Assembly (NCBI GenBank): GCA_903870275.1
Contig: CAIQCK010000101.1
Coordinates: 13,141-77,140, forward strand
Direction of reading: 5' to 3'
Length of the DNA: 64,000 nucleotides
DNA from: an uncultured bacterium
GTDB lineage: Bacteria > Verrucomicrobiota > Verrucomicrobiia > CAIQCK01
Made by a program: the position numbers and the translations under genes. Under the pieces are notes generated by a model. That model saw only the letters and a list, made by a program, of their open reading frames with translations. It was not told the origin of the DNA and ran no database searches. Below, in pieces: positions 15,332-44,880 of this stretch; within the stretch, counting starts at the first letter, position 1; every line of letters starts with the position of its first letter.

Positions 15332-15408
15332 TGGTGGGCGCGCTCGGATTCGAACCGAGGACCCAGTGATTAAGAGTCACTTGCTCTAGCCAGCTGAGCT
15401 ACGCGCCC
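15332..15408 (-). tRNA. tRNA-Lys (anticodon CUU)
   Basis: Reverse complement GGGCGCGTAGCTCAGCTGGCTAGAGCAAGTGACTCTTAATCACTGGGTCCTCGGTTCGAATCCGAGCGCGCCCACCA gives a canonical cloverleaf with anticodon loop CTCTTAA (CTT) and encoded CCA. A T8 run follows immediately 3'. Confidence 0.9.
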
Positions 15409-15426: not shown

Positions 15427-15484
15427 CCCTACCGATGTCGCCATGGCCTGTCAATACTCTACTCGATGGTACTCTACTCGATGG
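15427..15484 (-). promoter_or_regulatory. putative sigma70-type promoter of tRNA-Lys with upstream tandem 15-bp repeats
   Basis: On the minus strand: TTGACA (15450-15455) -17 nt- TAGGGT (15427-15432), about 18 nt before the tRNA 5' end. Immediately upstream are two perfect tandem copies of tactctactcgatgg (15455-15484). Confidence 0.4.
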
Positions 15485-17007: not shown

Positions 17008-17030
17008 CGTGTCGCTATCAGTCGCCACTA

Positions 17031-17119
17031 GTCAGTGTACAGTGGTTAGTGGACAGTGACCAGTGTTCAGTTTGCAGGAATCCGTTCGTTCACTGCCCAC
17101 TGTTCACTGTCCACTGATC
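17031..17119. repeat. inverted heptamer-period repeat pair: (NNCAGTG)x6 -13 nt- (CACTGNN)x4
   Basis: Left arm 17031-17083: seven 7-nt units (gtcgcca ctagtca gtgtaca gtggtta gtggaca gtgacca gtgttca) plus partial gtttg. Right arm 17096-17119: gttcact gcccact gttcact gtccact. The arms are imperfect reverse complements (gtggacagtgaccagtg / cactgttcactgtccac). Lies between the nadD start and the tRNA-Tyr 3' end. Confidence 0.7.
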
Positions 17120-17135
17120 CCTATTCACAAAAAAA

Positions 17136-17220
17136 TGGTGGAGGGAGAAGGATTTGAACCTTCGAAGGCATAGCCACCTGATTTACAGTCAGGCCCATTT
17201 GGCCGCTTTGGTATCCCTCC
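17136..17220 (-). tRNA. tRNA-Tyr (anticodon GUA)
   Basis: Reverse complement GGAGGGATACCAAAGCGGCCAAATGGGCCTGACTGTAAATCAGG...TTCGAAGGTTCAAATCCTTCTCCCTCCACCA. Anticodon loop CTGTAAA (GTA), long variable arm, encoded CCA. A T7 run follows immediately 3'. Confidence 0.9.
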
Positions 17221-18211: not shown

Positions 18212-19648
18212 GTGCCCGACAATAGAACCGTTTTGCAGTCAGACCGTTTTACATTGAGTCGGCAGCCGCCGCGTTTTACTTTGGCGTGTGTGGCTGCTGG
18301 ACAACACAAAACACACGGCTGGAAAAACGAAATTTTGAGAACCCAACATCTTATCGCGGCTTGCGCGCTGTTGCTCGGCGCAACGGAAGTCTATCCCCAA
18401 AACAAAGCGCCCCAGCCCACGGTTCGGAGCGATTCGGTGAACCTCGCCGCAGCCTGCAACAACGACGGCCACGCCAAGCTGGCCAGGCACGAGTGGGACG
18501 GCGCGCTGGCCGATTTCAACCGCGCCATCGAACTCAATCCGCAATTGGCCGCCGCCTACTGCAACCGCGCCAGCGCCTACTACAACAAAGGCGACTACGA
18601 CCGCGCCTTGCAGGACTTCAACCGCGCCATTGCCCTCGACCCAAACTACAGCACGGTCTTCAATGGGCGGGGCTATGTCCTGCTCGAACAAGGCGACTGG
18701 AGCGGCGCGCTGGCCGACTTCAACCGCGCTCTCGGCCCCTACCCCCATGACGCCGCCGCCTACAATGGCCGCGGCAACGCCCGGCAAAATCTGGGTGACG
18801 CGGACCGCGCTCTGGCCGATTTCAGCCGCGCCATCGAACTCAATCCCAGCTACGCCGCCGCCTACAATGGCCGCGGCAATGTCAAATGGACCAAGGGTGA
18901 CTTGAAGGGTGCGCTGGCCGATTTCAGCAAAGCCATCGCGCTCAATCCGAAGTTCGCTCCGGCTTGCACCAATCGCGGCCATATCCGTCGCATCCAGGGC
19001 GACGTGGACGGCGCGCTGGCCAACTTCAACCGCGCCATCGAATGCAACCCGAAGTTTGCTCCTGCATACAACGGCCGCGGCAGCATCAAGTGGACCAGGG
19101 GCGACACGAGCGGCGCGCTGGCCGATTTCAACACCGCCGTTGAACTGGATTCCAAGCTCGCCTCCGCCAGCTTCAACCGCGCCAGCGTCTTCTACGACAA
19201 ACGCGATTACGGCCGGGCCATCCAGGATTACAACCGCGCCATCGAGTGCAACCCGAAGTTCGCCCCCGCCTACAACGGCCGCGGCAGCGCCAAGTGGGCC
19301 AAGGGCGACGTGAGCGGCGCGCTGGGCGATTTCGATACCGCCATCGAACTGGATTCCAAACTCGCCCTGGCCTACTGCAACCGCGCCGGCGTCTATTACA
19401 ACCAGCGCGATTACGACCACGCCGTGCATGACTACGACCGAGCCATCGCGCTCGATCCAACCCACGCCGCCTCCTACTATGGCCGCGCCGCCGTTTGTTT
19501 CGTCAAAGGCGACTATACGCGGGCACTGGCGGATGTGAAGACATGCCAAAAACTGGGCGGCCAAGTGGATCCCGCCTTTCTCGCGCAACTGATGCAACCG
19601 CCCAGCAAGGCGAAGAAGGAAGAGAAGTCAGTGATCAGTAATCAGTAA
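18212..19648 (+). CDS. TPR-repeat protein (secreted/periplasmic)
   Basis: At least 10 tandem 34-aa TPR units (..A.ADFNRAIELNP..A.AY.NRG...). A probable signal peptide (LIAACALLLGATEV) begins at in-frame TTG 18335; coordinates given are the ATG ORF. The last 7 codons are encoded by the CAGTG heptamer array. Confidence 0.8.
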   Translation: MPDNRTVLQSDRFTLSRQPPRFTLACVAAGQHKTHGWKNEILRTQHLIAACALLLGATEVYPQNKAPQPTVRSDSVNLAAACNNDGHAKLARHEWDGALADFNRAIELNPQLAAAYCNRASAYYNKGDYDRALQDFNRAIALDPNYSTVFNGRGYVLLEQGDWSGALADFNRALGPYPHDAAAYNGRGNARQNLGDADRALADFSRAIELNPSYAAAYNGRGNVKWTKGDLKGALADFSKAIALNPKFAPACTNRGHIRRIQGDVDGALANFNRAIECNPKFAPAYNGRGSIKWTRGDTSGALADFNTAVELDSKLASASFNRASVFYDKRDYGRAIQDYNRAIECNPKFAPAYNGRGSAKWAKGDVSGALGDFDTAIELDSKLALAYCNRAGVYYNQRDYDHAVHDYDRAIALDPTHAASYYGRAAVCFVKGDYTRALADVKTCQKLGGQVDPAFLAQLMQPPSKAKKEEKSVISNQ

Positions 19649-19687
19649 CCAGTGTTTAGTAATCAGTGGCCAGCGGCCAGTCGTCAC
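19627..19687. repeat. (NNCAGTR)x8-9 heptamer tandem array
   Basis: gtcagtg atcagta atcagta accagtg tttagta atcagtg gccagcg gccagtc. Spans the TPR gene stop and ends 20 nt before the membrane-protein ATG. Confidence 0.75.
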
Positions 19688-20387: not shown

Positions 20388-20425
20388 TTACTGTCCACTG
20401 TTCACTGACCACTGATCACTGGCCA
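20388..20425. repeat. (CACTGNN)x5-6 heptamer tandem array (inverse orientation of 19627-19687 array)
   Basis: ttactgt ccactgt tcactga ccactga tcactgg ccattcc. Lies in the convergent intergenic region between the membrane-protein gene and the gluconolactonase gene. Confidence 0.7.
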
Positions 20426-20430
20426 TTCCC

Positions 20431-21333
20431 CTACTTCGCCTGATTGGCGCCTTTGACGCGCATGCGGATGGAGTAAAAGCCTTTGCTGGCAGTGATGAAA
20501 AGAGTGCGCTTGTCCTTGCCGCCGAAACAAAGGTTGGCGGTCCACGGCTCCGGCACGTCTATGTGCTCGATCTGTTTGCCCGTGGGGTCGAAGACGGTGA
20601 CGCCTTTGCCGGTGATGTAGATGTTGCCCTCGTCGTCGAGCGTCATGCCGTCGGAGCCGGGCCGAAACAGCAGCGTCTTGTTTGTGAGCGAGCCGTCGGG
20701 CTGAATGTTGTAGCGGTAGGTCTTCCGGTCCTGGATGTCGGCGACGTAGAGGGTCTTGCCGTCGGGCGTGCCGATGATGCCGTTGGGCTGGACGAGGTCG
20801 GTGGTGATGCGCACGAGCTTCTTGCGGTCCGGCGTGAGGTAATAGACCTGCTGGCTGTCCTGCGGCATCTTGTCGTGCTTCCACCACGGCCGCTTGTAAA
20901 ACGGGTCGGTGATATACATCCCGCCGTCGGGCCGCACCCAGACATCGTTCGGGCCGCACAGCAGCTTGCCCTCGTAGTCCTTCACGAGCACGGTCACGCT
21001 TCCGTCGGGCGCGATGCTCCACAGCTCGTTCTTCTCGTCGGCGCAGGAGATGATGTTCCCCTGCGCGTCGAAATACATGCCGTTGGAGCGGCCGGCCGGC
21101 TGTTTGAACGTGGTGAGTTTGCCGTCCACGCTCCATTTCATGATGCGGTCGTTGGGCTGGTCAGTGAAGAAGACGTTGCCGGCGGCGTCGCAGGTCGGCC
21201 CTTCGGTGAACTTGAACTCGCCGGAGAGTTTCTCCAGTTTAGCGCCGGGGGCGATGACGCTCTCCGCGCCGAAGAGCTGCGCGCCGGCGATAAGGCAAAG
21301 GGTCAGTGTGGCCAGCAGGAGTTTGGTTTTCAT
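20431..21333 (-). CDS. SMP-30/gluconolactonase/LRE-like beta-propeller protein (secreted)
   Basis: Signal peptide MKTKLLLATLTLCLIAGAQLFG at ATG 21333. SGL-family motifs ..FTEGP..D..GN..F.D, ..PNG.. and ..D..GN.Y.T. The ORF extends to 21495. Confidence 0.75.
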   Translation of the reverse strand: MKTKLLLATLTLCLIAGAQLFGAESVIAPGAKLEKLSGEFKFTEGPTCDAAGNVFFTDQPNDRIMKWSVDGKLTTFKQPAGRSNGMYFDAQGNIISCADEKNELWSIAPDGSVTVLVKDYEGKLLCGPNDVWVRPDGGMYITDPFYKRPWWKHDKMPQDSQQVYYLTPDRKKLVRITTDLVQPNGIIGTPDGKTLYVADIQDRKTYRYNIQPDGSLTNKTLLFRPGSDGMTLDDEGNIYITGKGVTVFDPTGKQIEHIDVPEPWTANLCFGGKDKRTLFITASKGFYSIRMRVKGANQAK

Positions 21334-21486
21334 GATGAACTTCCTCGCGTTTTCAACTGTCGGGCAACCGCGCAAACCATAAGCACGCCGTTCGCCGCCC
21401 GTCGAGCGCATTCCAACTCGTGGCAGGCCAAACGGTGAGTTCGAAATTCCACGACGAGCCGGAGGATTTAAGGTAGGATTCTCGTT

Positions 21487-21993
21487 ATGCGCCACGCCAT
21501 CACATCCATTTTACTGGCACCGCTGATTCTTATTCAAGGAACCACCTTGGCCGCAGATAACGCCGCCGACCAAGCGACGGTGCAGTTCATCAACCAACAG
21601 GCGTTGCGATGCATGACCAGCATCAAACTCGAGCTGGCCGGGTTGAGCAACCGGTGTCCCGCCTTCAAAACCATCGTCGCCGAACCGATGGACGCCGCGA
21701 AACCCACCGGCAAGAATGCGGGCTGTAGCATGAATTTCTGGCATCAAATGCATTACGTGGATGGCAAAGAGGTGCTGGATGACAGCGGAGTCCGCCTCGC
21801 CGTGGGCATCCGGGAACACATGCCCAACATGCAGACGACCCAACGGTATCGGGCCACCGTCGGCAAAAAACGAGTGACCGCCTATTATCACCTCGAGCTC
21901 GGCCAAAATCTGAAAGATCTGGAGGCGCCAATCAAGGCGATCCTCGACAGGAACTTGCAGCAATTCTGCGCCCTGGCGGAAAAGATGAAGTGA
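21487..21993 (+). CDS. secreted hypothetical protein
   Basis: 168 aa with N-terminal signal peptide (ILLAPLILIQGTTLAA). No recognised family. Confidence 0.45.
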   Translation: MRHAITSILLAPLILIQGTTLAADNAADQATVQFINQQALRCMTSIKLELAGLSNRCPAFKTIVAEPMDAAKPTGKNAGCSMNFWHQMHYVDGKEVLDDSGVRLAVGIREHMPNMQTTQRYRATVGKKRVTAYYHLELGQNLKDLEAPIKAILDRNLQQFCALAEKMK

Positions 21994-22003
21994 TGAGGCG
22001 GGG

Positions 22004-22046
22004 ATTGGAGATTGGTAATTGGTGGCCGGTAATTGATTGTTGGTGA
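22004..22046. repeat. (NNATTGG)x6 heptamer tandem array
   Basis: ggattgg agattgg taattgg tggccgg taattga ttgttgg, immediately after the stop of the 21487..21993 gene. Confidence 0.6.
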
Positions 22047-29559: not shown

Positions 29560-31250
29560 TGAATGATGGCGAGTTGAAGTTTCCTGGTTTTTGGTTATGC
29601 CGGTCACGCCCGCCGAACTCGCTCTCGGTTTGACCAACGTGGGTCTTTACAGTTGTTAGCCTCGTCGAACTTAGGTTCGACAAGCTCCTTCCCCCACAGC
29701 TTGCCGCCGGCACGCTGTGGATTGTTCCGAAAATGGCGATTGCGGTCCCGAAAGTAGCGGTTAATAGCCTCCTTGCACTCTTCGACTGACTGGTAATCAC
29801 TGTTGTGAAGTATCGCCTTCGCCATGCCACTGAAAACGGATTCGATCACATTCAGAAACTGTGCGCCCGCAGGAAGCGGGGCCAGTCTAACGAATGGCCC
29901 ATGCAGATCTCGGCGAAACTCGCGGCTGTTTACGAAATGAACCCTCTCAAGAAACTGATGCGAAGCGTGCCAAGACGCAGCGTCCCAAGAGAAATAGATG
30001 AACTTTGCCGCACGATACTTCCGCACAAGCAGATTCAGCAACTTGATCATCTCGGTTGTGTCCTTCTTTCGTGAGTAGAAATGCGTGGCTTGATTACGTG
30101 ATAACTCGAGTGCAGCCGTGACGATCAAACTGCCTTTATTCTTTTGGAGTTGTGGGACCACTCGCACTTGCCCTCTGGGGACGAATGACTTTCCGCCAGT
30201 CATCTTGACAGCAAATGGTCCGAACTCATCCACGGAGAAGAATCTGTCTTTTGTTCCCAAGTGTGAGAGTATGCGCGTAATCTTCCGAACTTTTTCAGAG
30301 TATTGCGGATCCGCGCTAGTCAGCACTTTCTTTGCCTTTCGCATCCGCCAACCTGCGTTCCTGATTATTCTGCTGATGCAGGCTTTCCCAACATGAAGCC
30401 CCTGTTTGCCCATGATGCACTTGATGTCCTGCAATCGCCAAGTCGTCCGGTTAACTCCAAAGGCGCGTGGCGGTGCATGGAGTATCGAGAAGACGGCCTG
30501 TTTGTATTCAGGGACATCGCACTTCGCGTATGCACGGCTAACAGGGTTTACGGCAGCTTCGCACCCTTTGGCAGCAAGTTGGGATATGTGAGCATCAACA
30601 GCGGAATGACCGAGGTGCAGGAATCTCGAAATGACCGAGACCGGAATTCCTTTCAGATGAGCAAGAATCGAAACCGCACGGTTCCTGAAACGCAAGCCCT
30701 TGTCTCTAATGCAACTCAGGATAAGACCGATCTCGCGCGGCGTCAGATGCTTCGCAAACAACAGAGCAAGTTGCTCGACAGTGAAGCTACCCTGAAGCAA
30801 GGAGAGCATCCACTCGCGACTTTTCTGCTCCCGGTCTGCGCGCGGGTTTACAGCTCTAATTGGTCGTTTACAATCTGGATAGATGCCATCTTCGTCACCC
30901 CGCCTTCGCATTCCTGACGCGCTTTCTAATGAACGTATCGACTGCTCCGCAAGCGACTGTGCATCGCTTGGGCATCGGCGTAGAGGCCGGAAACTTGCTG
31001 CTGCTTTGTCGAGCAACGCCTTCTTCCACCTGTAGAACACGTTCTGATGAATCCCGTAGCCTAAGCACAATAAGCGAACAGGAATCTTCTCCTCAAAGTG
31101 CATTCGGAGGAGCCTGACCTTTTCATCGGCGTTGAAGTGCCTTCGTTTTCTCGGCATGCGTGCTTAACATTGTTTCATTTCGCAGGCTGCGCCAGTGAAT
31201 TGTCAGTGGCGAGCCGGGACTCGAAACCTTCTCCCGCTAACCGCATCCAC
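29560..31250 (-). mobile_element. IS630-family insertion sequence (boundaries approximate)
   Basis: Single 517-aa transposase ORF with noticeably lower GC than its flanks. Terminal inverted repeats could not be resolved by eye, so the ends are estimated from the ORF ends plus typical 50-100 bp flanks. Confidence 0.55.
29604..31157 (-). CDS. IS630/Tc1-mariner family transposase (HTH + DDE_3)
   Basis: N-terminal HTH region (RRHFNADEKVRLLRMH...). DDE_3-like core (..FSVDEFG.., ..FSWDAASWH.., ..LPAGAQFLNVIESVF.. corresponding to the LPPYSPDLNPIE motif). Confidence 0.75.
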   Translation of the reverse strand: MPRKRRHFNADEKVRLLRMHFEEKIPVRLLCLGYGIHQNVFYRWKKALLDKAAASFRPLRRCPSDAQSLAEQSIRSLESASGMRRRGDEDGIYPDCKRPIRAVNPRADREQKSREWMLSLLQGSFTVEQLALLFAKHLTPREIGLILSCIRDKGLRFRNRAVSILAHLKGIPVSVISRFLHLGHSAVDAHISQLAAKGCEAAVNPVSRAYAKCDVPEYKQAVFSILHAPPRAFGVNRTTWRLQDIKCIMGKQGLHVGKACISRIIRNAGWRMRKAKKVLTSADPQYSEKVRKITRILSHLGTKDRFFSVDEFGPFAVKMTGGKSFVPRGQVRVVPQLQKNKGSLIVTAALELSRNQATHFYSRKKDTTEMIKLLNLLVRKYRAAKFIYFSWDAASWHASHQFLERVHFVNSREFRRDLHGPFVRLAPLPAGAQFLNVIESVFSGMAKAILHNSDYQSVEECKEAINRYFRDRNRHFRNNPQRAGGKLWGKELVEPKFDEANNCKDPRWSNRERVRRA

Positions 31251-31276
31251 ACGAACGCGATTCTTGTCCATTTACC
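31250..31276 (+). promoter_or_regulatory. shared upstream motif GAACGCGATTCTTGTYYATTTAC (copy 1, imperfect palindrome ACGAAC-N5-TTCTTG)
   Basis: About 40 nt upstream of the GH gene ATG at 31307. 21 of 23 positions identical to the copy at 35385-35410. Confidence 0.45.
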
Positions 31277-31306
31277 GCGAGACGTGACACGAGCATACTG
31301 GCAGAC

Positions 31307-33415
31307 ATGAAGGCACTTGCAATTATCCGACTCGGTTGCGCGTGTTTGGTTGGCGGTGCGATTGGAGCAGCGGCGGACGAGATTGTGTTGTTCGATGCCG
31401 CTACGACGCCGATGGCCGCGGTCGCGTCGCAGTCGGGCGGGAAGATCGAGTTGCGAGACGGGCTGCTGGAAGTCGAGACGAAGGGCGGGACGGGCTATCC
31501 GGGGATTCGTGTCAAGGGCGTGTGGGATTTGTCGAAGTGCAACCGGCTGACGCTGGAGCTGGCCCTTCGCGATCGCAAGGGCGAACTGCCGCTCACGATC
31601 CGGCTCGACAATCCGGATGCGAATCCCGGCAAATCAGAAGGCGTGTTTGTGGATCGCGTGAAGATCCGTGGCAAGAAGCCGGCGAGCTACGAAGTAGCGC
31701 TCCCGCCGCCGCTGCCCTACGGGCGCGAAATCAACAGCAAACTCACCGGCATGAAGCGCGGGCCGTTGGCGACGACGGGTGTGGCGGCCGATCTGGATGC
31801 GTCGAAGGTGGTCGGCGTGGCGGTCTATATCAACGAGCCGAAGCTGGACTGGCTCTGGAGTGTGAAGCGCATCGTCGCGCACACCGGGCCGTCGCCAGAC
31901 GTGGCGGCATGGATGCGGCTGCCGCCGGAAACGTTTTTCCCGTTCATTGACGTGTATGGCCAGTTCAAACACAAGGAGTGGCCCGGCAAGACGCACTCGG
32001 ACAACGACCTGAAAAAGGCACTGGAGACCGAGCGCGCCGACCTCGCCGCGCATTCCGGCCCCGACGGGTGGAACCCATACGGCGGTTGGGCCAAGGGGCC
32101 GCGGCAAAAAGCGACCGGCCGGTTCCGCGTCGAGAAGATCAACGGCAGGTGGTGGATGGTGGATCCCGAAGGCTGCCTCTGGTGGTCGCACGGGCCGGTG
32201 CGCGTCACCTCCTCGTCGGCGGTGACGCCGCTGGACGGGCGCGAGCTTTACTTCACCGATCTGCCCAAGCCGGACTCGCCGTTCGCGCTCTTCTATACGA
32301 CGCGCGACGCGCTGCTCTGGCCGTATTACGAGGCGCGCGGCATCCAGCGGACGTATGATTTTTCCTCGGCCAACGCCTACCGCAAGTATGGCGCGGACTG
32401 GCGCGCGCGCTACGCCGACATGGCGCACCAACGGCTGCGGAGCTGGGGCATGAACACCATCGCGAACAGTTCCGACAAGGGCATCTGCCTGCAGCGGCGC
32501 ACGCCCTACTGTGACCGCTTCGAGTTGAAATCGCCGGACATCGAGGGCGCGCATCTCGGCTGGTGGAAGTTCAAAGACCCGTTCCACCCCGAATTCCGCG
32601 CCAACTTCCGGCGGCAGCTCGCGCAGCGAAAAGAGGAACTCGATGACCCGTGGTGTTTCGGGTTTTTCGTGGACAATGAGATCAGTTGGGGCGGCGAGAC
32701 CGCGCTGGCGGACTGGACATTGCAATCGCCCGCCACCCAGCCGGCGAAGATCGAGATGATTCGCCGGCTCAAGGAGAAATACGCCGCCATCGCCCAACTC
32801 AACGCGGCATGGAAAACCAACTACACCGACTGGGACGCGTTGCTCCAATCGCAGCAGAAGCCACCGCCCGATGCGAAAGACGACTGCGCTGCATTCACCG
32901 CGGTCGTGACCGAGGCATACTTCAAGAACATCCGCGACGAATTCAAGGCTGTCGCTCCCAACACGCTCTATCTCGGTTGTCGCTTCGCCGGCTCGACCAA
33001 GGCCGCCGTCCAGATCGCGGCCAAATACTGCGACGTCATCAGCTACAACCTCTACCGGCACACGCTGGATGATTTCAAACTGCCGGAGGGCGTGGACAAG
33101 CCGGTTATGATTGGCGAGTTCCATTTCGGCGCGCTCGACCGCGGCATGTTTCATCCGAGCCTGATCGAGGTCGCCGACCAGGCCGCGCGCGGCAAAGCTT
33201 ACGCGACCTACATCGCTTCCGCGCTGCGCCACCCGAACATCGTCGGCGCGCACTGGCATCAATTCGGCGAGCAGCCGACCACCGGCCGCTTCGACGGTGA
33301 GAATCTTCAGAACGGCCTGCTCGATGTGTGCGACACGCCCTACCCCGAAACCATCGCCGGCATCCGCGACGTCGGCTATCGCCTTTACGAAATCCGCAAC
33401 GAAGGAGTGAGATAA
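31307..33415 (+). CDS. secreted glycoside hydrolase (N-terminal CBM-like beta-sandwich + TIM-barrel; GH42/GH50-like)
   Basis: Signal peptide. About 200-aa N-terminal beta-sandwich. TIM-barrel region with ..GMNTIANS.., ..GFFVDNEISW.., ..MIGEFHFG.. and ..HWHQFGEQPTTGR.. typical of clan GH-A hydrolases. Exact family unresolved. Confidence 0.6.
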   Translation: MKALAIIRLGCACLVGGAIGAAADEIVLFDAATTPMAAVASQSGGKIELRDGLLEVETKGGTGYPGIRVKGVWDLSKCNRLTLELALRDRKGELPLTIRLDNPDANPGKSEGVFVDRVKIRGKKPASYEVALPPPLPYGREINSKLTGMKRGPLATTGVAADLDASKVVGVAVYINEPKLDWLWSVKRIVAHTGPSPDVAAWMRLPPETFFPFIDVYGQFKHKEWPGKTHSDNDLKKALETERADLAAHSGPDGWNPYGGWAKGPRQKATGRFRVEKINGRWWMVDPEGCLWWSHGPVRVTSSSAVTPLDGRELYFTDLPKPDSPFALFYTTRDALLWPYYEARGIQRTYDFSSANAYRKYGADWRARYADMAHQRLRSWGMNTIANSSDKGICLQRRTPYCDRFELKSPDIEGAHLGWWKFKDPFHPEFRANFRRQLAQRKEELDDPWCFGFFVDNEISWGGETALADWTLQSPATQPAKIEMIRRLKEKYAAIAQLNAAWKTNYTDWDALLQSQQKPPPDAKDDCAAFTAVVTEAYFKNIRDEFKAVAPNTLYLGCRFAGSTKAAVQIAAKYCDVISYNLYRHTLDDFKLPEGVDKPVMIGEFHFGALDRGMFHPSLIEVADQAARGKAYATYIASALRHPNIVGAHWHQFGEQPTTGRFDGENLQNGLLDVCDTPYPETIAGIRDVGYRLYEIRNEGVR

Positions 33416-39082: not shown

Positions 39083-41776
39083 ATGAAACCCGTCTTCCCC
39101 TTCTGTCTTGCCGCGCTGTTCGTGGCCGGCGTTGCAACCGCAACGGATTTTTACGTCGCGGCCACCGGCGACGACGCCAATCCCGGCACGAAGACGAAGC
39201 CGTTCGCGACGCTGGAACACGCGCGCGACGCCGTCCGGCAATCCAAGACCCAAAATCCAAAGTCCAAAATCGAAGTCTTTCTCCGCGGCGGAGTTTACCG
39301 CGTCGAAAAGACGATCGAGTTCACGCTGGAAGACTCAGGCTCCGAGGACGCGCCGATCACTTACGCGGCATACGGCAGCGAGCGGCCGGTCATTTCAGGC
39401 GGTCGGCAAATTACCGGCTGGCAGAAAGGCGACGGCAAGCTCTGGCAAACGGTCGTGCCGGACGTGAAGGAAGGCCGCTGGTATTTCAACCAGCTTTTCG
39501 TCAACGGACAGCGGCGCACACGAGCACGGACGCCCAACAAGGGCTTCCTCTACACCGAAGGCATCCTCGCGCCGTTCAATCGCGCGAAATGGTCCAGCGA
39601 CACGGTGGCAAAACACGGCTTTGTGTTTCGCGACGGCGACATCAAGCGCTGGCGTAATTTCAACGACGCCGTGGTCGTCGTTTATCACTCATGGACAACC
39701 TCGATTCACCTGATCACCGATCTTGATTCCGGGCAGCGAACAGTGCGGCTCGCGCCGTCGTCGCGATGGCCCATCGGTTACTGGTGGGAATACAACACGC
39801 GATATCACGTCGAAAATATTTTCGAGGCGCTCGACGAGCCGGGCGAATGGTATCTCGACCGCGCTACGGGCGTTTTGAGCTACTGGCCAATGCCCGGCGA
39901 GAACATGCGTCGCGCGGAAGTCGTCGCGCCGGTCGTGCGGCAGACGCTGGTCGCGTTCCAAGGCGCGGCGGCGAAGAAGCAATACGTTGAATACCTTCGC
40001 TTCGCCGGCCTGTCGTTCCAGCACACGGATTACCTGCTCGCGCCGGACATGCCGCCTGATGAGCAAGGGGCCACGGAGCGCTTGCCGCTGATCGCCGCCG
40101 AAGGGTTGCGCCACGCGGTCTTTGAAAACTGCGAGATCACCCACGCCGGTGAGAACGCCCTCTGGCTCGATAGTGGTTGCGCCAACAACGTCTTCCGCCG
40201 CTGCCACATTCACGACCTCGGCGGCAGCGCCATATTCATCGGCCCGAAGAAATGGCGCGATACGCCGGAAGAACGCGTCGAGCGCAACGTTGTGGACAAC
40301 TGTTTCATTCACGATGGCTCGCACATATTCCTCGGCAGTCAGGGCGTGTGGATCGGCCGCTCCTCATACAACGAGGTGACGCACAACGAGATTTCCGACT
40401 TCGCCCATCTCGGCATCTCCGTCGGTCACTCGTGGGGTTACGCGCCGAGCAGCGCGCACAACAACCGGATCGCTTTCAACCACGTCCACCACATCTGCAA
40501 CGGATTTTTCAGTGACGGCGGCGGCATTTATACGCTCGGCATTTCGCCGGGCACAGTGATCCTGAACAACGTCGTCCACGACGTGGTGCCGACACCGCAG
40601 ATGCCGGTCGGCGGTACCGGCATCTACCTCGACGAAGGCTCCAGCGACATCGTCGTCGAGAGCAACCTCGTCTATCGCGTGGGCGCGGGCGCGTTCAACC
40701 AGCACTACGGGAAGGAAAACCTCGTGCGGAACAACATCTTCGCTTTCGGCGGGCGCAATCCGATCACCAGCGGCCGGCCGGAGGACCATTTGTCCTTCAC
40801 GTTCGAGGGCAACATCGCCCTGTCCAGCGAAGGCCAGGCCACGGCGGACCATTTCAGCCCGCTCAAATCAAAAACCGCGTTCCGCCACAATCTCTACTGG
40901 GACACCTCGACCACGGAACCGCTTTTCTCGAGTGTGAGTTTCGCCGAGTGGCAGCGCACCGGCCGCGACCAGGACTCGCACATCGCCGACCCGCAGTTCT
41001 ACGACGCGACGCATGGCGATTTCCGGCTCAAGAAAACCTCGCCCGCGCTCGCTATGGGTTTCCAACCGATCGCAACGGACCTTGTGGGTCTCTACGGCGA
41101 CGTCGCATGGGTGAACGCACCCAAGCGAATCAAGCGGGCGCCACTTCCCGATCTTCCGCCGCTGCCACCCGCGCCACCGCCGAAACCGCTGGTTATGGAT
41201 TTTGAATCCGACGCCACCGGCAAACAACCGGCTATGCTCACATGCACGCCCGCCGACCGAACCGACGTGCTGCAAGTGACTGAGGAAACGGCCGCCAGCG
41301 GAACGAAGTGCCTTAAGTTCACCCACGCCGCCGGTTTGCAACACTCCTGGCAGCCGCACGTCTATTACAGTTCCACCCGCTACACGAACGGCCTCGTCCG
41401 GTTCTCTTGTGACATCCAAAACAGCGCCGCGCATCCCTCCGATTGCTATGTCGGCTTGCGCGACTGGGGCAATGGCGGCGGCTCATATCGCGAGGGCGCC
41501 AGCCTGCTGCTGAAAACTGATGGCACGCTTTGTGCCAACGGCAAGCCCATCGTCAAAGTCGGGCTTGGTCGCTGGGCACACCTTGAAATTCAAACCGGGA
41601 CCGCCGATTACCGTCTAGCGGTCACCATCGCCAGTGAAAAAGAGCAAGTCTTCGAGCATCTGCCCTACGCCAATCCGGAATACCGTCAATTTACCTGGTT
41701 CGGTTTCTCATCTATGGGCAAACCCGGCGTGATCTTTTACGTGGATAACATTCGCCTGGAGTTACTTCCCAAATGA
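39083..41776 (+). CDS. secreted right-handed parallel beta-helix protein (pectate-lyase fold; polysaccharide lyase/hydrolase-like) with C-terminal beta-sandwich domain
   Basis: Signal peptide. DFYVAATGDDANPGTKTKPFATLEHARDAV N-terminus typical of beta-helix (Pectate_lyase_3/Beta_helix) CAZymes. Many ..N.....N.. coil repeats. Pro-rich linker PLPDLPPLPPAPPPKP followed by about 190-aa beta-sandwich. Contains in-frame 7-nt repeats at 39244-39278. Confidence 0.7.
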   Translation: MKPVFPFCLAALFVAGVATATDFYVAATGDDANPGTKTKPFATLEHARDAVRQSKTQNPKSKIEVFLRGGVYRVEKTIEFTLEDSGSEDAPITYAAYGSERPVISGGRQITGWQKGDGKLWQTVVPDVKEGRWYFNQLFVNGQRRTRARTPNKGFLYTEGILAPFNRAKWSSDTVAKHGFVFRDGDIKRWRNFNDAVVVVYHSWTTSIHLITDLDSGQRTVRLAPSSRWPIGYWWEYNTRYHVENIFEALDEPGEWYLDRATGVLSYWPMPGENMRRAEVVAPVVRQTLVAFQGAAAKKQYVEYLRFAGLSFQHTDYLLAPDMPPDEQGATERLPLIAAEGLRHAVFENCEITHAGENALWLDSGCANNVFRRCHIHDLGGSAIFIGPKKWRDTPEERVERNVVDNCFIHDGSHIFLGSQGVWIGRSSYNEVTHNEISDFAHLGISVGHSWGYAPSSAHNNRIAFNHVHHICNGFFSDGGGIYTLGISPGTVILNNVVHDVVPTPQMPVGGTGIYLDEGSSDIVVESNLVYRVGAGAFNQHYGKENLVRNNIFAFGGRNPITSGRPEDHLSFTFEGNIALSSEGQATADHFSPLKSKTAFRHNLYWDTSTTEPLFSSVSFAEWQRTGRDQDSHIADPQFYDATHGDFRLKKTSPALAMGFQPIATDLVGLYGDVAWVNAPKRIKRAPLPDLPPLPPAPPPKPLVMDFESDATGKQPAMLTCTPADRTDVLQVTEETAASGTKCLKFTHAAGLQHSWQPHVYYSSTRYTNGLVRFSCDIQNSAAHPSDCYVGLRDWGNGGGSYREGASLLLKTDGTLCANGKPIVKVGLGRWAHLEIQTGTADYRLAVTIASEKEQVFEHLPYANPEYRQFTWFGFSSMGKPGVIFYVDNIRLELLPK
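39244..39278 (+). repeat. intragenic heptanucleotide tandem repeat (CAARRYC)x4-5
   Basis: caagacc caaaatc caaagtc caaaatc gaagtct, encoding ..SKTQNPKSKIEV.. about 55 codons into 39083..41776. Confidence 0.7.
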
Positions 41777-41805
41777 CACGGTTCAGCAAACACAAAGACT
41801 CGATT

Positions 41806-44800
41806 ATGAAGAAGATATTGTGCATCGCCGCCGCCATGGCCGCTGCGGCCATCAGCCACGCCGACGTGTCCCTTTACGTCGCCACCAACGGCGACGACGC
41901 CAATCCCGGCACGAAGGCCAAACCGTTCGCGACGCTGGAGCACGCGCGCGACGCCGTCCGGGAATCTCAAATTTCAAATCGCAAATCTCAAATTGTGGTG
42001 TATGTCCGCGCCGGAACCTACGAACTGACAACGACGTTCAAGCTCACCACCGAGGATTCCGGTACTGAAAAAGCGCCGGTGGTTTATCGGGCGTATCCGA
42101 AGGAGAAGGTCCTGCTCATCGGCGGCAAGCGGATCACCGGCTTCACGCCATACAAGGGCGCGATTCTCAAAGCCGATGTCGGCGCGCAGGGGTTCACGAA
42201 TTATTTCCGCCAGCTTTTCCTCGACGGCAAGCGGATGCAGCTCGCGCGGTATCCGAATTACGATCCGGTGAATCCCAACGGCGGGTTCGCCTACGTGGAC
42301 GGCCCGTTGCCGAAGGACTCCGAGAAATACAAGGAGAAGCCGGAGTATCGGCCGCGGCAGATTTGTTTCAAGCCCAGCGACGCCCGCTCGTGGGCGCACC
42401 CGGAACAGGCCGAGGTGATTTATTTCCCGTGGCACAACTGGATGAACATCAGCGTCCCCGTCGCGTCGGTGGACAAGGAGCAGCGGCTCATCACGCTGAC
42501 GCGCGACGTGAAGACGCATGCCGGCTACCCCGGCGGCGTTCGCCCGGGCGACCGTTACTATGTCCGCAATGTGTTTGAGGAACTCGACTCGCCCGGCGAA
42601 TGGTTTCTCGACCGCGAGACGCACACGCTCTACTTCTGGCCGCCCGCCGACAGTAGCCGTCTACGTAAGGAGACGGGCGGAACCGCAGCAACGCCAAATC
42701 CGCCTCCTCACGTCGGCGGCTACGAGGCAATGAACGTTTACGCTCCGACCACCGAGAACCTGATCGAGATCGGCGCGAACGCCGCGTGGATCACCATCCG
42801 CGGGTTCACACTGGAATGCTGCGACGGCTACGCGGTGGCGTTGCGAGGGGCGAGCAACTGCCTCGTGGCCGCCAACACAATCCGCAACACGGCGGGCGGA
42901 CGCATCGGCGGCGGTGGCGCCGTGCTCGTGGACGGCGGCGCGAACTGCGGCGTCGTTGGCAATGACATCTATGACGTGGGCAACATCGGCATTACACTGC
43001 GCGGCGGCGACAAGGAGACGCTCAAGCCGGCCGGGCATTACGCCGACAACAACTACCTCCACCACATCGGCGTCCTCAACGGCCACGGCAACGGCATCAA
43101 GATCGAGGGCGTTGGCCTGCGCGTCTCGCACAACCTGTTGCACGACATCACCCGCAACAGCATCTACGGCGGCGGCAACGATTGCGTTGTGGAATACAAC
43201 CACGTCCGCCACGACAACCTGATGACCGAGGACACCGCCGGTTATTACAACGGCGGCAACTGGCACAACCGCGGCCAGATCGTCCGCTACAATTATGTCC
43301 ACGACACGCTCGGCTACGGCCGCCACGGCGGCAAATGGGTCTGGCCGTTCTTCGCCTGGGGCATCTACCTCGACGACGACGAAAGCGGCACGCACGTCTA
43401 TGGCAACATCGTCGCCCGCACCATGCTCGGCGGCTTCCACATCCACGCCGGCCGCGAGAACGTCATCGAGAACAACATCATCATCGACTGCGAGAAGCAG
43501 CAGTTCCAGATGTCCGGCCACGACCCGAGAAGCAGCCAGTGGCTGATTGACAAGAAGATGGCCGAGTTCGCGAAGTTCCAGCACAACCCCGCCTACGCGA
43601 AATATCCGGAGGTGCCGGCGCTCGACCCGGAAAAAGCGTGGCTGATGGTCGGGAACCAATTCTGCCGCAACATTGTCTGCTACCGGGGCACCAACTCCAT
43701 GCTCTACACCTATTCGCAGGATCGGTTTCCCGAACAGAACACGACCGACAACAATCTGGTCTGGCATTTCGACCAGCCGATCACTGTGCAACACAGCACC
43801 GGCTGGAAATCAGCGAAATACTCGTGGGAGGAATGGCAGAAGGCGGGCCACGACCAGCATTCCGTCGTCGCCGACCCGCTTTTCGTGAACGCCACGAAGG
43901 ACGATTACCGGCTCAAGAAAAACTCGCCTGCGTTCAAGCTCGGTTTCAAACCGATCCCCATCGAAAAGATCGGCCCGTATCGCGACGAACTCCGCGCGAG
44001 CTGGCCCATCGTCGAGGCCGAAGGTGTCCGCGAACATCCGCAGCCCGTCGAGATGGGCTCGCTCTGGCCCGACCAGGCGCCCGTGGGCGACGGCACCTTC
44101 GACACGGCCAACGCCAACATCACCGTGCATCTCCCCTCGCCCGACAAAGCCAACGGCGCGGCGGTGGTCATCTGTCCCGGCGGCGGCTACCAGCGCCTCA
44201 TGGTCCAACCCGAAGGCCACCAGATCGCCCGCTGGCTCAACGAGCACGGCATCGCGGGCATTGTGCTGGAATACCGGATGCCGGAGGGCCGGCATCTCGT
44301 CCCGTTGCTCGACGCCCAGCGCGCCATCCGCTACGTGCGATCGCGGGCCGCCGAGTGGCGCATCGCGCCGGATCGCATCGGCATCATGGGCTTCTCCGCC
44401 GGCGGACACCTCGCGTCCACGGCCGTCACCCACTTCGACGACGGCGACCCGAAGGCCGCCGATCCCGTCGCGCGCCTGGGTTGTCGTCCTGATTTCGGAA
44501 TCCTCATTTATCCCGTCGTCACGATGGGCGACAAAACCCACAGCGGCACGAAGAAGAACCTGCTCGGTCCCGACCCGAAGCCGGAACTGGTCAAGCTGTT
44601 CTCCAACGAAGAACAAGTCACCGCCAAAACACCGCCAACGTTCCTCGCCCACGCGATAGACGACAAGGCCGTGCCGATAGACAACAGCCGGAACTTTGCC
44701 GAGGCGATGAAAGCTCACAACGTCCCCGTCAAATATCTAGAACTCCCCTCCGGTGGCCACGGCCTCAACCACTACTCCGGCCCCATGTGGGACGCGTGGC

Positions 44801-44880
44801 AGACGCAGTCAATCGAGTGGCTAGCCGCGCAGGGATTCACCTCGCGAGGCAACGCTTCTCGCGCGTCAAAAACACCGTGA
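41806..44880 (+). CDS. secreted beta-helix protein (paralog of 39083..41776) fused to C-terminal alpha/beta-hydrolase carbohydrate-esterase domain
   Basis: N-terminus about 70% identical to the upstream gene (DVSLYVATNGDDANPGTKAKPFATLEHARDAV). C-terminal about 300 aa has esterase features (..VVICPGGGY.., nucleophile elbow GFSAGGHLA, ..HGLNHY..). ATG at 41806; the ORF extends back to 41773, overlapping the previous stop. Contains 7-nt repeats at 41968-41995. Confidence 0.7.
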   Translation: MKKILCIAAAMAAAAISHADVSLYVATNGDDANPGTKAKPFATLEHARDAVRESQISNRKSQIVVYVRAGTYELTTTFKLTTEDSGTEKAPVVYRAYPKEKVLLIGGKRITGFTPYKGAILKADVGAQGFTNYFRQLFLDGKRMQLARYPNYDPVNPNGGFAYVDGPLPKDSEKYKEKPEYRPRQICFKPSDARSWAHPEQAEVIYFPWHNWMNISVPVASVDKEQRLITLTRDVKTHAGYPGGVRPGDRYYVRNVFEELDSPGEWFLDRETHTLYFWPPADSSRLRKETGGTAATPNPPPHVGGYEAMNVYAPTTENLIEIGANAAWITIRGFTLECCDGYAVALRGASNCLVAANTIRNTAGGRIGGGGAVLVDGGANCGVVGNDIYDVGNIGITLRGGDKETLKPAGHYADNNYLHHIGVLNGHGNGIKIEGVGLRVSHNLLHDITRNSIYGGGNDCVVEYNHVRHDNLMTEDTAGYYNGGNWHNRGQIVRYNYVHDTLGYGRHGGKWVWPFFAWGIYLDDDESGTHVYGNIVARTMLGGFHIHAGRENVIENNIIIDCEKQQFQMSGHDPRSSQWLIDKKMAEFAKFQHNPAYAKYPEVPALDPEKAWLMVGNQFCRNIVCYRGTNSMLYTYSQDRFPEQNTTDNNLVWHFDQPITVQHSTGWKSAKYSWEEWQKAGHDQHSVVADPLFVNATKDDYRLKKNSPAFKLGFKPIPIEKIGPYRDELRASWPIVEAEGVREHPQPVEMGSLWPDQAPVGDGTFDTANANITVHLPSPDKANGAAVVICPGGGYQRLMVQPEGHQIARWLNEHGIAGIVLEYRMPEGRHLVPLLDAQRAIRYVRSRAAEWRIAPDRIGIMGFSAGGHLASTAVTHFDDGDPKAADPVARLGCRPDFGILIYPVVTMGDKTHSGTKKNLLGPDPKPELVKLFSNEEQVTAKTPPTFLAHAIDDKAVPIDNSRNFAEAMKAHNVPVKYLELPSGGHGLNHYSGPMWDAWQTQSIEWLAAQGFTSRGNASRASKTP
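41968..41995 (+). repeat. intragenic heptanucleotide tandem repeat (CAAATYN)x4
   Basis: caaattt caaatcg caaatct caaattg, encoding ..SQISNRKSQIV.. at the position homologous to the repeat in the upstream paralog. Confidence 0.7.

Follow-up and report, generated by a model that had tools for sequence, protein, structure and literature searches.

The 64,000-nucleotide stretch of DNA analysed here (the window; ~60% GC) belongs to an uncultured Verrucomicrobial bacterium (contig CAIQCK010000101.1, positions 13,141–77,140; all positions below are those of the window) and contains two adjacent plus-strand genes, named G1 and G2, each of which is a full-length open reading frame (ORF) carrying a heptanucleotide repeat array in its 5' coding region. 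G1 (39083–41776) encodes a predicted secreted GH141-like right-handed beta-helix protein of 897 aa. In Pfam it matched Beta_helix (1.1e-17) and GH141_M (9e-09), the latter with 35.8 bits against a cut-off of 27 bits, and its matches among PDB sequences included 9rx2 (2.8e-58) and BT_1002, a solved GH141 enzyme (5mqp, chain 5mqp_A; 2.2e-43). The AlphaFold2 model of G1 had a mean pLDDT (predicted local distance difference test) of 89.7. Since it resembles BT_1002 in sequence and carries the GH141 insertion domain, G1 appears to be a member of the GH141 family. G2 (41806–44880) encodes a predicted fusion of a beta-helix with a BD-FAE/alpha-beta-hydrolase esterase domain of 1024 aa (BD-FAE, 5.6e-21; Beta_helix, 6.6e-12). 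Because its GH141_M score was just 22.9 bits and under the cut-off, G2 is better described as a fusion of an esterase with a related beta-helix than as a GH141 protein, and the two proteins share ~29% identity overall. An alternative in-frame ATG for G2 at 41773, where gene callers place the start, overlaps the stop codon of G1 (ATGA, 41773–41776) and gives a product of 1035 aa. The most likely start is at 41806 (MKKIL...), where the signal peptide begins, and the MKK... start of G2 is kept in the relatives L001, L059, and L064.

The array of G1 spans 39239–39274 and that of G2 spans 41962–41997, both on the plus strand and both at codons 53–64. Tandem Repeats Finder (TRF) reported period 7 in both: 39240–39271 in G1, with 4.6 copies, 76% matches and consensus AATCCAA, and 41963–41993 in G2, with 4.4 copies, 83% matches and AATCTCA. 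The units read C AATCCAA GACCCAA AATCCAA AGTCCAA AATCG in G1 and G AATCTCA AATTTCA AATCGCA AATCTCA AATTG in G2, and the codons read CAA TCC AAG ACC CAA AAT CCA AAG TCC AAA ATC GAA in G1, encoding QSKTQNPKSKIE, and GAA TCT CAA ATT TCA AAT CGC AAA TCT CAA ATT GTG in G2, encoding ESQISNRKSQIV. The first-pass annotation of this DNA had quoted four heptamer units for each gene, which were found exactly at 39244–39271 and 41968–41995, and had placed them in frame at homologous N-terminal positions, as is the case. It had also put them just after the signal peptide; the N-terminal position holds, whereas codon 53 lies ~30 codons past the probable cleavage site, as judged by eye. In the G1 model, residues 53–57 end the N-terminal cap helix (44–57), residues 58–62 form a turn and residues 63–67 the first beta-strand, and the array segment is ordered with pLDDT of at least 90. 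No two adjacent units are identical in either array. Because every unit is interrupted, neither contains three or more identical units in an unbroken row, as Power (2009; PMC2651432) required, and such rows are present in arrays of the relatives L059/L061 (x4.4), L060 (x3.4), L066 (x3), and L039 (x3). A candidate site for programmed −1 ribosomal frameshifting at AAATTTC in G2 was rejected, as it is out of the X_XXY_YYZ phase relative to the reading frame.

Both coding arrays are heptanucleotide simple sequence repeats, as the first-pass annotation had proposed, and they go beyond what chance produces, as TRF, shuffling, and synonymous resampling all bear out. The window contained 5 period-7 arrays (at least four copies, at least 76% self-match), compared with a mean of 0.17 in 100 dinucleotide-preserving shuffles, and no array of periods 8–11 at the same criterion. 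A genome-wide tendency to generate 7-nt repeats had been suggested earlier; the excess was confirmed for this window, and the two coding arrays are supported as part of this local excess. When the encoded peptides were held constant and codons were drawn from local usage, the period-7 matches exceeded those in 99% of the synonymous resamplings (p = 0.009 for G1 and 0.006 for G2). The GC content at third codon positions was 0.5 in the G1 array and 0.17 (2/12) in the G2 array, against 0.77 for the genome, and the arrays use codons that are rare: TCT and TCA account for 0.04 and 0.06 of the serine codons, and CCA for 0.09 of the proline codons.

The history of the arrays was followed in orthologues, which were retrieved through full-length proteins and hence with a bias against OFF alleles. 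Loci are given by L numbers; the more informative relatives have ~85–87% nucleotide identity, and the closest lineage (94% identical; P0001, P0127, P0128, and P0131) was compared as peptides only. In G2 of L059 and L061 (~87% nucleotide identity) the array is perfect (G AATCCAA AATCCAA AATCCAA AATCCAA AATCG, x4.4), giving ESKIQNPKSKIE (GAATCCAAAATCCAAAATCCAAAATCCAAAATCG). The array of L060 is also perfect (x3.4), and 27 additional bases outside the repeat lie upstream of it; L062 and L063 have an AATCCAA array with 3 mismatches to the perfect form, AATCCAG and AATCCAA alternate in L064, and L001 has a decayed GC-rich version of the same 36 nt. The peptides of further G2 orthologues (QSKIGNPKSNME, QAKVQNQKSKIE, QSKTQNPTSKID, and others) fit decay from (AATCCAA)n, the translation of which is QNPKSKI. 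The G1 array of the window belongs to the same AATCCAA family as found in these G2 orthologues. In L001 the G1 array reads CAGAAGT CAGAAAT CAGAAAT CAGAGAT and has a length identical to that of the window, and in L061 it is a GC-rich array of ATTCGCG type, four codons longer. Even relatives in the same 90%-identity protein clusters differ strongly in this segment (QSKTQNPKSKIE, ALKIRDSRSALSDSVT, and QPEVRNQKSEIK for G1; ESQISNRKSQIV, ESKIQNPKSKIE, and QSKTGKPGAKAH for G2). At the array site, G1 orthologues from further away, with protein identity of up to 81% in the part that matched, carry ELKKAGPLKEPVTV, which is not repetitive; most homologues likewise have ELKKAGPLKEPVTV, one residue longer and written in ordinary GC-rich codons with no repeat.

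The third-codon positions separated a repeat of DNA from a repeat of peptide. Among carriers of AATCCAA arrays, third positions differed at 0–3 of 12 in most comparisons and at most at 5 of 12, whereas the 30 codons just downstream differed at 13–17 third positions among G2 orthologues. The substitutions inside the arrays were mostly nonsynonymous (K to R, K to E, K to T, I to M, and I to T). Because the synonymous sites are conserved, the changes are mostly nonsynonymous and the codons are atypical, the array is a DNA-level repeat and not a selected peptide motif. The first-pass annotation had held that an amino-acid repeat conserved with non-repetitive codons would speak against its proposal; the orthologues instead kept repeat-consistent codons.

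The units of the arrays also change in concert. When the G2 array of the window was aligned in register with the perfect L059 array, 12 of the 36 positions differed, with A>C at unit position 6 in all four full units and C>T or G at position 5 in all four. Similarly, the (ATCAGAA)n array in G1 of L001 differs from the (ATCCAAA)n array in G1 of the window by the same two-base change in each unit, at equal length. Because independent point mutation is very unlikely to give the same change in each unit, the units have been replaced by one another, presumably through cycles of slippage or unit-to-unit conversion, and this replacement took place with the total length held at 36 nt. Exchange between the paralogues has probably occurred as well. 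The 5' segments of G1 (39150–39246) and G2 (41873–41970), both on the plus strand, share 91% identity over 98 nt, against ~29% protein identity overall, and look like a gene-conversion tract ending at the array. The window G1 differs from the L059 G2 at 10 of 87 positions upstream (4 of 29 third positions) and 4 of 36 in the array, compared with 40 of 90 downstream. Because G1 thus resembles the L059 G2 upstream and in the array and is unrelated to it downstream, the G1 array was probably acquired from G2 by a 5' gene conversion ending at the array, a conclusion that is supported but indirect.

Variation in unit number among orthologues, which the first-pass annotation had put forward as a check, was not seen by whole units in those recovered through the full-length protein search. 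The repeat-coded stretch is 36 nt in most of them, down to ~77% protein identity, and two are longer, by 12 or 27 nt. No variants of one to three units were found in the 90%-identity protein clusters, and the exact G1 and G2 proteins occur on 15 and 12 contigs, respectively. Both arrays were unchanged in several metagenome assemblies of the same strain (L055–L058; BUCK21-1 from ENA and Logan runs), which matched the window at 100% identity across as much as 22.7 kb. These identical arrays are weak evidence for stability, because the assemblies are consensus sequences of the same clone and are 100% identical everywhere.

The consequences of a whole-unit change were examined by simulation and in relatives. 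Gain or loss of one or two units brought a stop codon at residue 71–193 of either protein, as expected from the earlier statement that one unit shifts the frame, and a change of three units remained in frame; both arrays are therefore placed, as in a switch, where a one-unit change would abolish the product. Whole-unit changes of such arrays have occurred in relatives. L066, a 2,090-bp JGI contig with another beta-helix gene, has (AAGCTCA)x3 followed by AAGTCGA A, which makes 29 nt instead of 36; its frame is broken, and with one more unit the gene is in frame again and has a segment of 12 residues, KLKAQSSKLKVE. In L039, a different loop, in the C-terminal domain of a G1 orthologue, contains CAATCCAAAAT and is longer by 21 nt (three units, in frame) than in L022, L003, and L004. 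An ATTCCGC array encodes a loop of an esterase-like protein in L046. A lengthened loop in the C-terminal domain of another G1 orthologue was also observed in L005 (12431–12550) and L036 (8431–8550), where a small coding heptamer duplication, CTCGAAA CTCGAAA, gives ...SKLET.... A profile search for OFF alleles with the N-terminal 66 residues returned short ORFs only, mostly contig-end fragments or broken genes of many unrelated beta-helix families, and arrays were present only in L066 and L065. The latter was rejected as evidence of an OFF allele; its AAGCTCA array has a 1-nt insertion and not a whole unit, and it lies on a contig full of split genes, which suggests long-read indel errors. From L065 and L066, we infer only that the repeat may have been seeded by the native codons for K-L-K-A (AAG CTC AAA GC).

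These results together suggested that the arrays of G1 and G2 are probably interrupted and largely stabilised heptanucleotide microsatellites by descent, and not an on/off switch. Their ancestor would have been a heptanucleotide microsatellite at codons 53–64 of a tandem GH141-like beta-helix family in one Verrucomicrobial clade. Replication slippage, or conversion of one unit by another, may both create such arrays and drive their turnover in a lineage that readily forms 7-nt repeats, with selection presumably retaining only those versions that keep the frame and a segment of ~12 residues. In the genome studied here, point substitutions have interrupted every unit, so that slippage would now be rare and the sequences would act as ordinary coding DNA. 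Interruptions are generally expected to lower slippage. The net effect would be a fast-evolving peptide segment of near-constant length. Several points weigh against this explanation. The invariance comes from clonal consensus assemblies without variation anywhere, and minority length variants could be present. The array stays repetitive across ~77–90% protein identity and is perfect in some lineages, and this persistence implies either continuing homogenisation, with the locus still mutable in relatives, or selection at the DNA or RNA level. Short perfect tracts of longer units are also able to switch fast, as with (GACGA)4 to 3 in hsdM of Haemophilus influenzae (PMC2651432). Slippage as the mechanism, like any cause of the preference for units of 7 nt, is what we infer.

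The first-pass annotation had taken the arrays for candidate phase-variation switches. An active contingency locus, in which one-unit slipped-strand mispairing reversibly turns each gene OFF and ON at a useful rate, we find unlikely for this genome. The location near the 5' end, the truncation at residue 71–193 by one or two units, the natural allele of L066 one unit short at the same segment of a related gene, the perfect x4.4 arrays of relatives and the switching of short tracts of long units in H. influenzae all speak for it, as does concerted evolution, which implies repeated unit turnover. Nevertheless, every unit in the window is interrupted, and L066 stands alone, as an allele of another gene in another organism. 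No recovered orthologue differs by a whole unit and most have 36 nt, although that search was biased to ON alleles, and no variant was seen on the 15 and 12 contigs with the exact proteins, where the clonal consensus assemblies make the evidence weak. The presence of similar arrays in intergenic DNA and in other protein loops argues for a general mutational habit rather than a dedicated switch. The chance of switching is higher, and still unproven, for the perfect tracts in relatives. One could imagine that perfect (AATCCAA)4 or (AAGCTCA)3–4 tracts are true contingency elements in free-living polysaccharide-degrading Verrucomicrobia, where single-unit slippage would turn the gene OFF and ON and re-diversify the exposed segment in each cycle, the window arrays being alleles locked ON; we regard this as doubtful.

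The strong differences between the segments of relatives at ~85–87% nucleotide identity, and the mostly nonsynonymous nature of the substitutions, would also be expected if the array were kept so that an exposed segment of the enzyme changes quickly, in the manner of antigenic variation. However, the same pattern would follow if a sequence prone to slippage turned over neutrally where the protein tolerates it, the segment is structurally ordered and constrained in length, and there is no evident agent that would exert such selection on an enzyme degrading polysaccharides, which makes diversifying in-frame variation quite improbable. The conserved synonymous sites, together with the rare codons and the position fixed at codons 53–64 in both paralogues and their orthologues, could instead reflect an element acting at the DNA or RNA level, either a cluster of rare A/T-rich codons ~30 codons past the signal peptide that slows translation for export or a periodic protein-binding site. 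Such a function is very unlikely, given that the unit varies by lineage (AATCCAA, AATCTCA, ATCAGAA, the GC-rich ATTCGCG, and the decayed GC-rich G2 of L001) and that most homologues have common codons there and no repeat. If selection on the protein maintained a structural peptide repeat, with the DNA periodicity as a by-product, this would account for the recurrence of the motif QSKIQNPKSKIE in many G2 orthologues and for the ordered segment in the model. The repeat-consistent A-rich codons with almost no synonymous drift, the resampling p values below 0.01, the mainly nonsynonymous changes, and the unrelated sequence in more distant homologues leave this reading largely refuted here and hardly credible. 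Stabilised microsatellites by descent remain the explanation we prefer.

Period-7 arrays are also present elsewhere in the window. The first-pass annotation had listed intergenic arrays at 17031, 19627, 20388, and 22004; the first three were confirmed by TRF at 17031, 19628, and 20390, and the fourth (NATTGGN; 22003–22045, plus strand, ~10 nt past the stop of the ORF 21487–21993) is weaker, with no TRF report at a score of at least 30 and detection by a relaxed scan only. A further array, beyond that list, lies at 17088–17128 and is inverted relative to the one at 17031–17071; the two (CAGTGNN x6 and CACTGNN x6; together 17031–17128) stand beside tRNA-Tyr (17136–17220, minus strand), between it and the next minus-strand gene. 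The minus strand of 17010–17140 folds as a long hairpin (−50.1 kcal/mol, z = −5.3 against shuffles), and a run of seven U precedes the hairpin and does not follow it. The plus-strand array TCAGTRA x5.7 at 19628–19667 contains the stop codon of a TPR gene (18212–19648), which ends inside TCAGTGA TCAGTAA TCAGTAA, with stops in all three frames and the encoded end ...SVISNQ*. Within this TPR gene (18750–19448), tandem repeats of 102 nt and 204 nt (34-residue TPR units) have copies 64–81% identical. The minus strand also has an array with a CAGTG core at 20390–20425, close to the stop codon of the ORF 20431–21495 of that strand and 3' of it. On the coding strand of the upstream gene, the intergenic arrays are located at the stop codon or within ~10–60 nt of it. 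The arrays at 17031–17071, 17088–17128, 19628–19667, and 20390–20425 share a conserved five-base core (CAGTG/CAGTR) followed by two near-random bases in each unit, and this core may be under constraint, because uniform decay of a microsatellite would not give a core with random bases. Rfam at gathering thresholds gave tRNAs only and no match at any array. A perfect 15-nt tandem duplication (TACTCTACTCGATGG x2) was observed at 15455–15484, ~50 nt from tRNA-Lys (15332–15408, minus strand). A DDE_3 transposase gene (~29604–31157, minus strand; 522–2075 of L055) lies between a HEAT-repeat gene and the next gene and is absent from the otherwise syntenic contig of a 94%-identical relative; the adjoining 30001–32000 has a GC of 0.56, and the gene has the look of an insertion sequence peculiar to this strain.

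There are earlier descriptions of both heptanucleotide repeats and heptamer phase variation from other bacteria. Heptameric repeats were reported as over-represented in some bacteria, with polymerase slippage suggested as the source (Mrazek 2007, as cited in PMC4679880 and PMC4692102). For Xanthomonas (GGGAATC) and Nostoc (GGGGA(C/T)T), arrays of four heptamer units close to stop codons are known (Rehm 2015, PMC4692102). The window arrays resemble these in the 7-nt unit, the number of about four units, and the local excess of period 7 over other periods, and the intergenic copies lie within tens of bases of stop codons, some as inverted pairs. Their units, by contrast, are not rich in G and are unable to form quadruplexes, they occur with several unrelated cores side by side, and they come from an uncultured Verrucomicrobium; moreover, the G1 and G2 arrays are coding and in frame, whereas the Xanthomonas and Nostoc repeats are under-represented in coding sequence. 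Direct repeats of TAACTGA in Beggiatoaceae, Cyanobacteria, and Bacteroidetes occur in 2–6 copies (MacGregor 2015, PMC4679880); in the forward copies, which overlap the ends of genes, each of the three frames contains a stop, and the reverse copies are occasionally tolerated in frame at the protein periphery (PMC4679880). The window arrays do not belong to this type; only the array at 19628 (TCAGTGA TCAGTAA ...) resembles its reverse complement TCAGTTA (SVISNQ compared with LSVISYQ), and the units of the coding arrays read AATCCAA and AATCTCA. Between genes, the cores are CAGTG/CACTG in degenerate units of five core and two variable bases, and these copies stand 3' of genes, unlike TAACTGA, which is mostly directly upstream of start codons.

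Further parallels are the heptanucleotide loci of H. influenzae, namely the hmw1A/hmw2A promoters, (AATTTTG)14 in hmw1A, and (AACAACC)8–13 in a TonB-dependent receptor gene (PMC2651432). As these have been proposed for phase variation and occur also inside ORFs, the earlier remark that heptamer switches would be unusual was overstated. The window arrays share with them a 7-nt unit in or near a gene for an exported protein and a whole-unit change that shifts the frame or alters expression, but the H. influenzae tracts are perfect, have 8–38 units, and vary between strains, whereas the window arrays have 4–5 interrupted units and no variation of unit number in the assemblies. In some pathogens, repeats that are enriched near N-termini more than structure would lead one to expect have been connected with phase variation (PMC3315296). 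Our literature search found nothing specific on heptamer repeats in Verrucomicrobia. Three things set this case apart: the lineage of the host, a clear record of concerted evolution, and the way in which a non-triplet repeat has stayed in frame at one structural segment in different paralogues and species.

The case of G1 and G2 illustrates the probable life of a non-triplet microsatellite within a gene, from a short proto-repeat seed through in-frame expansion by three units and homogenisation across units to copying between paralogues, an occasional break of the frame, and freezing by point mutations. With it, an uncultured Verrucomicrobial lineage joins the bacteria in which 7-nt repeats are in excess. 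As regards annotation, the case indicates that a repeat near the 5' end of a gene for a secreted protein does not by itself make a phase-variation switch. If the perfect arrays of the relatives do switch, phase variation would extend from host-adapted pathogens to environmental genes for carbohydrate-degrading enzymes, which would be of wider interest.

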